Positions 11,342-17,944 of a DNA stretch of 37,523 nucleotides are shown here, piece after piece (the first letter of the stretch is position 1; every line of letters begins with the position of its first letter). The notes beneath the pieces are model-generated. The model was given only the letters and a program-made list of their open reading frames with translations, was not told the origin of the DNA and ran no database searches. The stretch covers positions 1 to 37,523 of the forward strand of contig CAZWYX010000003.1 in assembly GCA_964638485.1 (NCBI GenBank), read 5' to 3'. Source of the DNA: an uncultured Planctomycetales bacterium. GTDB taxonomy: Bacteria; Omnitrophota; Gorgyraeia; Aquiviventales; CAZWYX01. A program made the translations under genes and the position numbers.

Positions 11342-13053
11342 CGCACCCCCATCGCGAACCACGTTTTCTTCGCAAATACGTGTTCTCGACAGATCACAAA
11401 GTGATTGGTGTGCAATTTCTGTTCACCGGACTCACGATGCTCATCCTCGGGGGCTTGCTGGCAATGCTGATGCGTTGGCAACTCGGGTATCCTGGCCAGC
11501 CCCTGCCGTTCATGGAGAAGATCGCCCCCGAGGGCATGCCCGGCGGGATCATGGTCCCCGAGTACTACAACGTGCTCTTCACGATGCACGGCACGCTGAT
11601 GATTTTCTTTGCCATCATTCCCATCCTCGTCGGCGCCTTTGGAAATTATTTGATTCCGTTGAACATTGGGGCTGGCGACATGGCCTTCCCGCGGCTCAAT
11701 ATGATTTCCTACTGGTTGATCCCGCCGTCGGCTCTCATCATGCTCGCTGGCTTTTTCGTCGAAGGTGGCGCAGCCGCAGCGGGCTGGACGTCGTATCCGC
11801 CGTTGAGTGCCGTCTCCTCGAGCGCGGGCCAGACGTGCTGGCTGGTGAGTCTCATCTTCCTGGGCACCTCCTCCATTCTGGGCGCGGTGAACTACGTGAC
11901 GACCATTGTGAATCTCCGCGCGCCAGGGATGACGTTCCATCGTTTACCCCTGACTCTCTGGGCGCTGTTCACGACGGCGCTCCTCATTTTGTTTGCGACA
12001 CCGATCCTCGCAGCCGCGCTCATTTTGCTCCTGCTCGATAAAACTGTGGGCACCAGCTTTTTCCTGCCTGCAGGACTCATTGTAGACGGTGCGTCACTCG
12101 CCCACGTCGGTGGCCAGCCACTCCTCTGGCAGCACCTCTTCTGGTTCTACTCACATCCAGCGGTCTACATCATGATTCTACCGGCGATGGGGATGGTCTC
12201 TGATATCCTGCCGGTCTTTGCACGCAAACCCATCTTTGGCTACCGCGCGATTGCCTATGCGTCGCTCGCCATCGCGATCCTGGGCATGTTTGTGTGGGGC
12301 CACCACATGTTTCAAAGCGGGATGAACCCTGTCCTCGGCACGAGTTTCATGATTTCGACAATGGTCGTGGCGGTACCGTCGGCCGTGAAGACGTTTAACT
12401 GGCTGGGGACCCTGTGGCGCGGGAACATTCACTTGACCACACCGATGCTGCATGCGCTGGGATTTGTCTCGATGTTCGTCATTGGAGGACTCACCGGAAT
12501 CTTCATGGCTTCCACGCCGGTAGACATCTACATCCATGATACCTACTTTATCGTCGGGCATCTGCACTACGTGCTCTTTGGCGGCAGCCTCTTCGGGGCG
12601 TTCGCCGGGATCGCGTTCTGGTTTCCCAAGATGTTCGGACGGCTGCTCAACGAACGCTGGGGCAAACTCCATTTTTGGCTCACCTTCCTTTTCTTCAACA
12701 CGACGATGTTTCCCATGTTTAACCTCGGGATGGGTGGAATGCAGCGCCGCATTTACGATTGGACCCAATACGCACATCTCGCCGAGATGGGTCCATTGAA
12801 TCGCATGATGACGGTGAGCGCCTTCCTCTTGGGCGCGGTGCAAGTGATCTTCTTCGTGAATTTCTGCTGGAGCCTCTTCCGGGGGAAACGTGCTGGCAAT
12901 AATCCGTGGCAAGCCACGACACTGGAGTGGCAGACGTCATCACCTCCACCGCATGGCAATTTCGCAGAGATGCCGACGGTGTATCACGGCCCGTACGAGT
13001 ACAGCTCGCCTCTCGTGGCCGAGGATTACCTCCCACAAAACCGAAAGCTCTGA
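11338..13053 (+). CDS. ctaD: cytochrome c oxidase subunit I, A2-type
   Basis: Trimmed to ATG 11338, which overlaps the coxB stop as ATGA. Contains FSTDHKVIG, the D-channel segment GNYLIPLNIGAGDMAFPRLN, WFYSHPAVY (a YS motif replacing the helix-VI Glu, hence A2 type) and GHHMF. At 571 aa it is not fused to subunit III. Confidence 0.92.
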   Translation: MTHPHREPRFLRKYVFSTDHKVIGVQFLFTGLTMLILGGLLAMLMRWQLGYPGQPLPFMEKIAPEGMPGGIMVPEYYNVLFTMHGTLMIFFAIIPILVGAFGNYLIPLNIGAGDMAFPRLNMISYWLIPPSALIMLAGFFVEGGAAAAGWTSYPPLSAVSSSAGQTCWLVSLIFLGTSSILGAVNYVTTIVNLRAPGMTFHRLPLTLWALFTTALLILFATPILAAALILLLLDKTVGTSFFLPAGLIVDGASLAHVGGQPLLWQHLFWFYSHPAVYIMILPAMGMVSDILPVFARKPIFGYRAIAYASLAIAILGMFVWGHHMFQSGMNPVLGTSFMISTMVVAVPSAVKTFNWLGTLWRGNIHLTTPMLHALGFVSMFVIGGLTGIFMASTPVDIYIHDTYFIVGHLHYVLFGGSLFGAFAGIAFWFPKMFGRLLNERWGKLHFWLTFLFFNTTMFPMFNLGMGGMQRRIYDWTQYAHLAEMGPLNRMMTVSAFLLGAVQVIFFVNFCWSLFRGKRAGNNPWQATTLEWQTSSPPPHGNFAEMPTVYHGPYEYSSPLVAEDYLPQNRKL

Positions 13054-14732
13054 TGAGTGTGCATCGTTTGGCTCAATGGACGTCTCTGGCTGCCTTCGTT
13101 TTGATCGTCGCTGGCGGTTTGGTGACCTCGACTGGCTCAGGCTTGGCGATTCCTGACTGGCCGCTCGCCTACGGCCAACTCGTCCCCCCCTGGGTGGGTG
13201 GCATCCGCTTTGAATACGCGCATCGCCTGATCGCAGCACTCGTGGGACTGCTGACGGTCATGCTCGTGATCGGACTCTGGCGAACACAGCAGCATCGGAG
13301 TGTCCGATGGTTCGGGCTGTTCGCGTTGAGTGGGATCGTCCTCCAAGCGGTCCTGGGAGGGCTGACCGTCCTCCAGGAATTGCCACGCAGCCTCTCCATC
13401 GCACATGCCTGCGTTGGATCGTTGGTGTTCTGCGCGCTCGCGAGTCTCGCATATGTGCTGTCGCCTTCCTGGTCATGCCCACTGACAGGCCACGGTGACT
13501 CGCGATTGGCCCATCTGACAGGCGCGACGACCGGCCTACTCCTCCTCCAGTTATTTGTGGGGGCGATCCGACGTCACACCGGCATGGGGCTGACAGCGCA
13601 TCTCATCGGCGCCGGGCTGGTCAGCGTGAGCGTCGTGTGGATGGCCTTCCGTGTACGCCGACAGCACCGTCGTGATCCCGTGGTGACACGCCTGATCGTG
13701 TGGCTCGTAACGTTGTGGTGCTGGCAACTGCTGCTCGGTGTCGTGAGCGCCTGGTTCTGGCCGTCGGTGTTCATCCGCACCGCTCACCAGGCAGGAGGGG
13801 TGCTCCTCCTCGCCACCAGCGTGGTGCTGACCATACGCACCCGTCACACGGTTGGCCGACTCGCTCCATGGCTGTCGTGGCGTCGCATCGCCACCTACCT
13901 CGAGCTGACCAAACCACGCCTCACGTTGTTGGCCGTGATGACGACACTGGTGGGTTTCCTGTTGGCTGCTGACGGGAGTCTCGCCATCACTCGCTTGGTG
14001 CTCACGCTCCTGGGGACGCTGAGTGTCGTCGCTGGCGCGCAGGCGCTCAACCAGTACCTCGAACGGGAGGCCGATGCGAAAATGGCGCGCACCAACACCC
14101 GCCCGCTCCCTGCACGACGGCTGCGACCCGAGCAGGCCTTGACGTGCGGCGTCCTGCTGGCCGTGGTGGGACTGGTGAGCCTGGCGATGGGCGTCAATTT
14201 GTTGACGAGCGTCCTCGAAGCCCTCGCGCTGAGTTTGTATCTCTTTGTCTACACGCCGCTGAAATCTCGCACCGCGCTGTGTACGCTCGTTGGAGCGATC
14301 CCTGGCGCCATTCCACCGATGGCGGGGTGGGCTGCGGCGAGAAACAGCCTGGATTCACCAGCGTGGATTCTCGGTGCGATTTTGTTTCTGTGGCAGTTAC
14401 CCCATTTCCTGGCACTCGCGTGGCTGTACCGTGAAGACTATGCGCGCGCCGACTTCCGGTTCCTCACGTCGCTCGATCCGCGTGGCGCCAGCGCTAGTCG
14501 GCAAATCGTCCTCTACTCGATCGCCCTCGTCCCTGTCACCCTGGTGCCGACGGTGCTGGGTCTGACGGGTGCAGTCTACTTCGTGGGAGCGCTCGTGCTC
14601 GGGCTGGTCTTCGTGGGGATGGGATGGCGGGTGGCGCTGGTAAAATCCGCTCGCCAAGCCAGATGGCTCTTCATGACCTCGATTACGTATCTGCCGCTCC
14701 TCTTGACGCTCATGGCACTGGATCGCGTATGA
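13053..14732 (+). CDS. fused haem A synthase (CtaA/COX15) - protohaem IX farnesyltransferase (CtaB/CyoE)
   Basis: ATG 13053 shares one nucleotide with the ctaD stop (TGATG). The N-terminal half has LVTSTGSGLAIPDWPL and His-bearing TM helices (CtaA). The C-terminal half has YLELTKPRLTLL...NQYLEREADAKMARTNTRPLP (UbiA-type CtaB). Confidence 0.85.
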   Translation: MSVHRLAQWTSLAAFVLIVAGGLVTSTGSGLAIPDWPLAYGQLVPPWVGGIRFEYAHRLIAALVGLLTVMLVIGLWRTQQHRSVRWFGLFALSGIVLQAVLGGLTVLQELPRSLSIAHACVGSLVFCALASLAYVLSPSWSCPLTGHGDSRLAHLTGATTGLLLLQLFVGAIRRHTGMGLTAHLIGAGLVSVSVVWMAFRVRRQHRRDPVVTRLIVWLVTLWCWQLLLGVVSAWFWPSVFIRTAHQAGGVLLLATSVVLTIRTRHTVGRLAPWLSWRRIATYLELTKPRLTLLAVMTTLVGFLLAADGSLAITRLVLTLLGTLSVVAGAQALNQYLEREADAKMARTNTRPLPARRLRPEQALTCGVLLAVVGLVSLAMGVNLLTSVLEALALSLYLFVYTPLKSRTALCTLVGAIPGAIPPMAGWAAARNSLDSPAWILGAILFLWQLPHFLALAWLYREDYARADFRFLTSLDPRGASASRQIVLYSIALVPVTLVPTVLGLTGAVYFVGALVLGLVFVGMGWRVALVKSARQARWLFMTSITYLPLLLTLMALDRV

Positions 14733-17270: not shown

Positions 17271-17453
17271 TTAGCGAGGGGCACCACCCTTGCGCTTCGA
17301 GAAACACTCCTTGCAGTAGACCGGCCGATCGCCGCTGGGCTTGAAGGGCACTTCGCACTCCTGCTTGCAGTCGGCACAGGTCGCCTTGAACATTTCCCGC
17401 GGCCGTCCACCGAACCCACCACCACCGAACCCACCACCTGGTTGAAACCCCAC
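17271..17453 (-). CDS. CxxC-x17-CxxC zinc-ribbon protein with a Gly-rich N-terminus (TIGR04272-like)
   Basis: AAGGAGG lies 6 nt upstream of the GTG start. In CADC-KQECEVPFKPSGDRPVY-CKEC I counted exactly 17 residues between the two CxxC pairs. Confidence 0.7.
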   Translation of the reverse strand: MGFQPGGGFGGGGFGGRPREMFKATCADCKQECEVPFKPSGDRPVYCKECFSKRKGGAPR

Positions 17454-17648: not shown

Positions 17649-17944
17649 CTCCCCGGCCAGGACTCGAACCTGGGACCTAGTGGTTACAGGGTGCCCTCGC
17701 GTTTCCGCGAGGCCTGGACTATCTCTTCACCCTCGACTTCACGTTAGGGTGGCGGGTGCATAGTCTCTGCACGTTCCCCCCGACACACCGTATCGAGGGA
17801 CTCCGCTCAGGATTACCATGTCCGCGCTGGACTAGGCGCGAACGAAGGCTCCCCTGAATTCTCCCGCTGTGTCAATCTGCCTTTCGGCAGAAAGCTGCGC
17901 TTAAAAAGCACAGCCACCCGCTCTACCAACTGAGCTACCGGGGA
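17649..17944 (-). tRNA. tRNA-Asn(GUU) interrupted by a group I intron (exons 17910-17944 and 17649-17686)
   Basis: Joined exons give a 73-nt cloverleaf: TCCCCGG TA GCTC AGTTGGTA GAGC G GGTGG CTGTTAA CCACT AGGTC CCAGG TTCGAGT CCTGG CCGGGGA G. All stems pair, with one G-U. GG is in the D-loop and TTCGA in the T-loop. The U1-A72 pair, G73 discriminator and CUGUUAA loop match bacterial tRNA-Asn. CCA is not encoded. Confidence 0.85.
17687..17909 (-). ncRNA. group I intron, 223 nt, no ORF, inserted between anticodon positions U35 and U36
   Basis: The 5' exon ends in U and the intron ends in G. Hand-built fold in intron numbering: P1 exon GGCUGU+GC with GCGCAGCU (U-G at the splice site); P2 UCUGCC-GAAA-GGCAGA; P3 GCGGG(43-47)/CCCGC(154-158); P4 UUCAGG(52-57)/CCUGAG(99-104); P5a 8-bp GUUCGCGC/GCGCGGAC; P6 hairpin 110-134; P7 G-A(bulge)-GACUA/UAGUCC; J8/7 AAGAGA; P8 CACCCU/AGGGUG; P9 CCUCGCG-GAAA-CGCGAGG. 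The core strings GGACAUGGUAAU, CAGAGACUA and AAGAGAUAGUCC resemble the Tetrahymena and Azoarcus cores. Confidence 0.8.

Follow-up and report, generated by a model that had tools for sequence, protein, structure and literature searches.

The window analysed here, a stretch of 37,523 nucleotides (nt) forming positions 1 to 37,523 of contig CAZWYX010000003.1 (assembly GCA_964638485.1, from an uncultured bacterium), carries on its minus strand a tRNA-Asn(GUU) gene that is split between U35 and U36 of the anticodon by a group I intron with no open reading frame (ORF). We consider it very probable that the gene is functional, and that its intron is an Azoarcus-like ribozyme of the IC3 type that descends, now ORF-less, from a family homing by means of an HNH endonuclease. 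The feature runs from 17944 down to 17649 and consists of three pieces of 35, 223 and 38 nt. The 5' exon (17910..17944) supplies nucleotides 1-35 of the tRNA, that is, the 5' strand of the acceptor stem, the D arm, the 5' strand of the anticodon stem and C32, U33, G34 and U35; it reads TCCCCGG TA GCTC AGTTGGTA GAGC G GGTGG CTGT, and ends as RNA in GGCUGU. The intron (17687..17909) ends in CCCUG. The 3' exon (17649..17686), which starts with UAACCACU, supplies nucleotides 36-73, with U36, A37 and A38, the 3' strand of the anticodon stem, the variable loop, the T arm, the 3' strand of the acceptor stem and G73 (TAA CCACT AGGTC CCAGG TTCGAGT CCTGG CCGGGGA G). Joining at the splice junctions gives CUGU/UAA, the slash marking the junction, and CCA is absent from the encoded 3' end.

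The identity of the tRNA is clear from both the precursor and the spliced product. With introns allowed, ARAGORN calls a tRNA-Asn(gtt) with a 223-nt intron, and it folds the 73-nt sequence spliced in silico into a standard cloverleaf whose anticodon is GTT, whose variable loop has 5 nt and whose discriminator is G73. The latter is an identity element for bacterial asparaginyl-tRNA synthetase. The mature sequence is identical at 62-68 of its 73 nt to the uninterrupted tRNA-Asn of relatives in which the gene also lies next to recR; the two of these that were scanned with the Rfam tRNA model score 70.4 (locus L162) and 67.8 bits (L184). ARAGORN in default mode reports no tRNA in the entire 37.5-kilobase window, and the Rfam tRNA model does not see the split gene there. 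This is expected and does not count against a tRNA-Asn. The split gene is the sole tRNA gene in the window.

The intron is matched by the covariance model for group I introns, RF00028 (Intron_gpI), at 17919..17695 on the minus strand, with 92.2 bits (gathering score 50; E 1.4e-22). The match is full length (model positions 1-253 of 253), and RF00028 is the only Rfam family that exceeds its gathering score in the window. The folding energy of the intron is -98.7 kcal/mol, with z = -4.33 relative to 200 shuffled sequences, and the minimum-energy fold of the intron alone already contains P2, P4-P5-P5a, P6a, P8 and P9. All elements lie on the minus strand. P1 (17893..17915) has its 5' strand at 17915-17907, the loop UUUUA (L1) and a 3' strand at 17901-17893 that holds the internal guide sequence (IGS); the exon sequence GGCUGU and the first intron nucleotides GCU are paired with AGCGCAGCU, which places U35 (17910) in a wobble pair with a G of the IGS (17898) at the 5' splice site. 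P2 (17877..17890) is the hairpin CUGCC-GAAA-GGCAG, with its GAAA loop at 17885-17882. The 5' strand of P3, GCGGGAG (17861..17867), pairs with 17758-17752. The P4-P5-P5a domain (17807..17857) comprises P4 (UCAGGG at 17857-17852 with UCCUGA at 17812-17807), P5 (CC/GG) and P5a, an 8-base-pair hairpin, and is followed by P6 (GCG/CGU) with the P6a hairpin (17771..17806). The 5' strand of P7, G-A(bulge)-GACUA(U) (17760..17767), includes the region of the guanosine-binding G-C pair, and the 3' strand of P3, CACCCGC (17752..17758), closes the P3/P7 pseudoknot. P8 (17728..17751) is the hairpin CACCCU...AGGGUG; it has the internal motif CCUAAC/CGAGG where relatives have an 11-nt GAAA receptor. J8/7 (AAGAGA) and the 3' strand of P7 (UAGUCC), which pairs with the P7 5' strand, lie together at 17716..17727. 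The 5' strand of P9.0, AG (17714..17715), pairs with CU at 17689-17688, just before the terminal guanosine at 17687, which marks the 3' splice site. Between them, P9 (17695..17712) is the hairpin CCUCGCG-GAAA-CGCGAGG, with its GAAA loop at 17705-17702. This is the minimal IC3 architecture, with P2, no P5abc or P2.1 extension and a site in a tRNA anticodon loop, as judged from the layout, the covariance match being to the general RF00028 model. An earlier note on this DNA, made from the letters and a list of ORFs, had proposed just such a gene: two tRNA halves 223 nt apart that join into an Asn-type cloverleaf, with a compact group I intron, lacking an ORF, inserted between positions 35 and 36 of the anticodon. 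That reading is borne out by the covariance model, by ARAGORN on both the precursor and the spliced 73-mer and by covariation in 45 homologues. The elements the note had drawn by hand, namely P1 with its U-G pair, the GAAA tetraloops of P2 and P9, the P3/P7 pseudoknot with a bulged A in P7, J8/7 and the terminal G, are all present.

Relatives were collected by scanning one genome per species for the 3' strand of P7 followed, after a gap, by G/TAA and the variable loop and T arm of tRNA-Asn, which yielded at least 120 loci. A locus was counted as a true split gene when it had a matching acceptor stem, anticodon stem and D arm and a 5' exon ending in CTGT. This explicit search for exon halves took the place of ARAGORN, whose intron mode often misplaced the boundaries in relatives and called Thr(tgt), Asp(gtc), Tyr or His. 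At least 93 split tRNA-Asn genes were found among the 120 matches listed; loci in Sphingomonas (L022) and Thauera (L056) were chance matches removed by the D-arm test, and 25 further loci match the pattern only or are cut by contig ends. All 93 share the 5' junction CUGU/intron, the IGS GCAGC and the core sequence AGACUA, the 3' junction G/UAA having been demanded by the scan pattern. The guide sequence is conserved in all members because it reads C32-U33-G34-U35, which is invariant in tRNA-Asn.

Covariation was scored in a plain MAFFT alignment of the window intron and 44 short relatives (45 sequences; alignment A1) against the hand-drawn P1-P9 structure. In this alignment 86.7% of the structure cells pair, as against 33-45% when the partners are slid by 1-3 columns, and 622 cells have changed on both sides, compared with 220 +/- 13 after shuffling (none of 500 shuffles reaches 622). 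Compensatory changes occur in P2, P3, P4, P5a, P6, P6a, P8 and P9. All five pairs of P2 covary (95.6% of cells paired), as do five of six in P4 (99.6%), all nine in P6a, five of six in P8 and six of seven in P9; P3 has changes on both sides at four of its seven pairs (90.5%), and P6, with 97% of cells paired, has exchanged CG for GC. The first intron pair of P1 covaries as well (GC 13, AU 11, CG 5, UA 3). Neither P7 nor the exon portion of P1 varies at all, so that P7 is uninformative in this respect: the P1 pairs C32-G, U33-A, G34-C and U35-G and the P7 5' strand AGAGACUA are invariant in 45 of 45 sequences, and AUAGUCC is likewise identical in all 45 rows, ATAGTC having been part of the retrieval pattern. 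RNAalifold, run without the hand-drawn structure, recovers the anticodon stem, P1-P6, P8, P9 and a two-pair P9.0. Both pairs of the latter covary (AU 36, GC 4, GU 3 for one; CG 22, AU 11, UA 7, GC 3 for the other), and since P9.0 ends just before the terminal G, the 3' splice site is fixed independently. The terminal G is also found in those recR-linked relatives that were retrieved through a protein and not by a DNA pattern. The window copy keeps all 43 positions that are invariant in the family, and RF00028 is also passed by the relatives L159, L033, L181, L165, L012, L177, L109, L143 and L130.

Split tRNA-Asn genes occur in more than ten phyla, as labelled in the records of the matches listed, with at least 45 loci in Patescibacteria, at least seven in genomes labelled Gammaproteobacteria, at least six each in Omnitrophota, Cyanobacteria and unclassified genomes, at least five each in Nitrospirota and Deltaproteobacteria (plus at least one in Syntrophales), at least three each in Planctomycetota and in bins labelled DPANN archaea, at least two each in Methylomirabilota and Limnocylindria, and at least one each in Elusimicrobia and Margulisbacteria. 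The DPANN-labelled bins (L003, L009 and L093; Pacearchaeota and Woesearchaeota) hold the same bacterial-type split gene, which may be mis-binned Patescibacteria DNA or may reflect a real archaeal presence. By length, the introns among the matches listed form two groups, of 190-345 nt (68 loci) and 519-593 nt (24 loci). In most members of the family an additional structured insertion lies between the P7 5' and P3 3' strands (A1 columns 268-313), often beginning with a UCCCGAAAGGGAGUA-type hairpin (for example in L079, L075, L030, L012 and L102); it comes in at least two sequence types common to different phyla, and it is absent from the window intron and from L033, L111, L109, L076 and L003. 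Among contigs labelled viral in IMG/VR, 10 of 31 pattern matches are split tRNA-Asn genes. Two of these, L127 (IMGVR_UViG_3300033233_000001, 297 kb) and L130 (168 kb), lie inside large tRNA arrays; others are L143, L125, L126, L132, L133, L148 and L151. When GenBank phages were searched with the precursor, Halorubrum viruses matched in exon sequence only, and no intron homologue was returned.

The long introns (519-593 nt, at least 24 genome loci, for example L010, L018, L025 and L119) carry in L1 a conserved ORF of 100-125 amino acids with the motif CxxC...HH...CANCHxExH. Pfam HNH is matched by 17 of 22 of these ORFs, and a profile built from them finds McrA and, with E 2.8e-4, the HNH endonuclease domain of the group II intron maturase 6me0. 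One site can be compared across organisms found through RecR (loci L155-L234, RecR 46-61% identical), in which the order recR then tRNA-Asn is conserved with a spacing of about 35 nt to about 2.2 kb, some loci having less than about 100 nt between the two genes. The site occurs there in three states: with an intron that holds the HNH ORF (L156/157, L165 and L181/182; 520-522 nt), with an ORF-less intron (L159, 245 nt; L177, 263 nt) and without an intron (L162, L184, L180, L193 and L215). RecR identity is 54-61% in the relatives that display the three states, the intronless L193 and L215 lying at 46-48%. The ORF-bearing introns (L165:3664-4258, L156:4088-4680 and L181:5752-6345) are the closest relatives of the window intron, with about 72% identity over its nt 9-223; the roughly 300 nt that they have in addition are located precisely in loop L1, and the frame of the ORF extends into the guide sequence, P2 and P3. 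In the intronless L162 the anticodon arm is the same as in intron-bearing relatives. The three states are the pattern expected from a cycle of homing, endonuclease loss and intron loss. Thus, the window copy seems to descend, without the endonuclease, from a mobile intron that would have homed into tRNA-Asn by means of an HNH endonuclease encoded in L1. The window intron itself has no ORF, and with an L1 of just UUUUA it lacks the homing endonuclease by which a mobile group I intron is recognized.

Together these features suggest how the tRNA may be made. The precursor would be transcribed just downstream of recR, and the guide sequence (GCAGC...) would pair with the invariant C32-U33-G34-U35 to form P1 with its U35-G wobble. 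Free guanosine bound in the P7 pocket would then attack after U35; P9.0 would next set the terminal G in the same pocket, and the 5' exon would attack after that G, joining U35 to U36. Possibly in place of a true P10, the anticodon stem would keep the exons together, and it probably aligns them as it does for the Anabaena tRNA-Leu intron, for which this role is attributed to Zaug et al. 1993 in a review (PMC3984707). The product would be a 73-nt tRNA with the anticodon loop CUGUUAA, to which CCA is still to be added. Several points weigh against a gene that is spliced efficiently in this manner. The case for catalytic competence is drawn from conservation. P3 contains an A.A mismatch at a place that is U-G in most relatives, and the motifs of P5 (CCUUCG/CAUGG) and P8 differ from the canonical 11-nt GAAA receptor (CCUAAG/UAUGG), which is found in P5 and/or P8 of many relatives, in an Azoarcus-type layout for the docking of L9 and L2; with variant receptors, the tertiary docking of L9 and L2 in the window intron is less certain. 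The mismatch and the variant motifs are the only blemishes detected in the intron. Moreover, the 3' exon and the guide sequence offer no convincing P10; a 3-base-pair UAA/UUA pairing with L1 is possible but out of register. A scan for promoters and terminators found nothing above chance and no promoter-like site. A further point on this side would be a second tRNA-Asn gene, uninterrupted and at another place in the genome, to which we return below.

The blemishes in P3, P5 and P8 could mean that the intron is genuine and depends on a host protein (a chaperone, a tRNA synthetase or a maturase-like factor), or that it splices too slowly to provide all of the tRNA-Asn. Many group I introns do need protein help in vivo (PMC3984707). 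Every invariant core position is kept, however, the fold is stable, and small introns of this architecture, such as that of Azoarcus, self-splice robustly (PMC13168695), so that we regard a dependence of this kind as unlikely. It seems less likely still, indeed improbable, that the window holds a decaying or redundant copy, with an intron that may already be inactive and a second tRNA-Asn gene to replace it. The search for tRNA-Asn in the organism's own genome covers the 37.5-kilobase window, and default tRNA finders see nothing at the locus, which would suit a relic. But the two exons form a perfect cloverleaf and the invariant positions of the ribozyme are intact; two single-nucleotide polymorphisms in independent assemblies, 17869 C>A in J2/3 and 17787 T>G in loop L6a, are both unpaired and outside the helices; an exact, uninterrupted 73-mer has no match in the JGI metagenome collection, of which at least one sample (Ga0114945) carries this organism; and the arrangement persists in at least 93 genomes, including Patescibacteria with very small genomes. 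We therefore retain a functional gene with a self-splicing intron as the best explanation.

That the two tRNA halves and intron-like DNA were misjoined during assembly is effectively refuted. Contigs from two JGI metagenomes and from a Logan assembly encode an identical RecR and match the window at 99.9-100%. The two JGI contigs span the whole split gene in the same arrangement at 99.9% identity; being independent, they exclude an artefact of assembly as the source of the arrangement. The Logan contig is 100% identical but stops at window position 17919 and so takes in no more of the 5' exon than its first 26 nt. The same gene structure is, in addition, present in hundreds of unrelated assemblies. 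The gene follows recR after a gap of 20 nt, sharing its strand with plsX-fabH-fabD-dnaX-recR, in housekeeping DNA of about 61% G+C that also encodes aconitase, RecG, RecJ, SecDF and RuvB. The source organism appears to belong to a deep, uncultured lineage; the best named relatives of its RuvB, at 74-76% identity, are from Omnitrophica and Rokubacteria metagenome-assembled genomes. Elsewhere in the window, 12906-14732 on the plus strand is a single ORF of 608 amino acids that joins a COX15/CtaA (heme A synthase) to a UbiA/CtaB (heme O synthase) domain; SCO1/SenC and DUF420 genes come after it, and together they make up a fused cluster for cytochrome oxidase assembly. A short imperfect direct repeat, CCACCGAACCCACCACC twice, is located at 17405-17440 (plus strand), downstream of the tRNA at a distance of about 210 nt; a minus-strand ORF of 113 amino acids that overlaps it has no Pfam match and is not gene-like.

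Group I introns in the anticodon loops of bacterial tRNAs have been known since about 1990, and this kind of element is therefore not new. The hosts named in reviews and tool papers are tRNA-Leu(UAA), fMet, Ile(CAU) and Arg(CCU) (for example, PMC3984707, PMC8450103, PMC2686568), and some tRNAs in Candidate Phyla Radiation (CPR) genomes are mentioned, as a personal communication that does not name the isotype, to have 'had Group I introns' (PMC8172020). In the searchable literature, which is thin in subscription journals and hence no proof, no paper names a tRNA-Asn host or the 35/36 site. The phage group I introns known in 2014 were all in protein-coding genes (PMC3984707). The host Asn(GUU) and its 35/36 site are thus apparently unreported, yet widespread in public genomes. 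The statement of the earlier note that Asn(GUU) is not among the known hosts stands for the literature searched but not for sequence space, in view of the at least 93 species-level genomes and the 10 viral-labelled contigs. Its emphasis on compactness was likewise right in part: the intron is short and ORF-less, but at 223 nt it is ordinary within the family (down to 190 nt among the matches listed) and longer than the 205 nt of Azoarcus. Whether these genes make up an undescribed pan-bacterial mobile family that targets the CUGU/U loop of tRNA-Asn, is spread by the HNH protein of L1 and extends to viral contigs, some with tRNA arrays, is to our mind an evenly balanced question.

If the reading of a functional, self-splicing gene is correct, lineages with a single tRNA-Asn would need a ribozyme for all asparagine decoding, and anticodon-loop modifications that require a joined loop would also depend on splicing. 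Standard tRNA finders would then systematically report tRNA-Asn as missing. tRNAscan-SE 2.0 is not designed for group I introns (PMC8450103), and because it and ARAGORN in default mode miss a tRNA split in this way, carrier genomes appear to lack tRNA-Asn. This blind spot in annotation affects the completeness checks applied to metagenome-assembled genomes. A single syntenic site with three alleles would further be a tidy natural example of homing, decay and loss in a tRNA gene, and structural or engineering studies could draw on the family's many small, GC-rich ribozymes (190-260 nt). The value of these observations lies mainly at the level of the family, in the blind spot, the putative HNH-driven mobility and the viral copies; the single locus adds little, and our understanding of how group I introns work is unchanged.

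Among known systems, the Azoarcus tRNA-Ile(CAU) intron is the most similar in layout. Both introns have the elements P2-P9 without P5abc and GAAA loops on P2 and P9; in the Azoarcus crystal structures these loops dock into P8 and P5, as they may do in the window intron. The Azoarcus intron is inserted after anticodon position 36 and the window intron after position 35. Both are small, ORF-less and in the anticodon loop of a bacterial tRNA, both have a P7 of the AGAGACUA...AUAGUCC type, and in both a U of the 5' exon is the wobble partner in P1. With its 205 nt, the Azoarcus intron does without several peripheral domains (PMC13168695). The two differ in their hosts, tRNA-Ile(CAU) and tRNA-Asn(GUU), and in the exon sequence that the guide reads, CAU in one and CUGU in the other. 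Moreover, the P5 and P8 receptor motifs of the window intron are non-canonical, and the Asn family has endonuclease-bearing relatives. The tRNA-Leu intron, as in Anabaena, is a self-splicing intron of the IC3 type and also lies inside a bacterial tRNA anticodon; self-splicing is predicted for the window intron too. It is located between positions 34 and 35, is largely inherited vertically and carries no endonuclease gene, whereas the Asn intron, at 35/36, belongs to a family in which alleles with an intron and endonuclease, with an intron alone and with no intron occur at a single syntenic site. Like the Asn intron, the tRNA-Leu intron escapes standard tRNA finders (PMC8450103, PMC2686568). 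The cyanobacterial tRNA-fMet intron (I-SspI type) is in another host tRNA and encodes its own endonuclease, in contrast to the ORF-less window copy. The Asn family has as its enzyme a small HNH protein, with its ORF in L1, whereas that of the fMet intron belongs to a different family.

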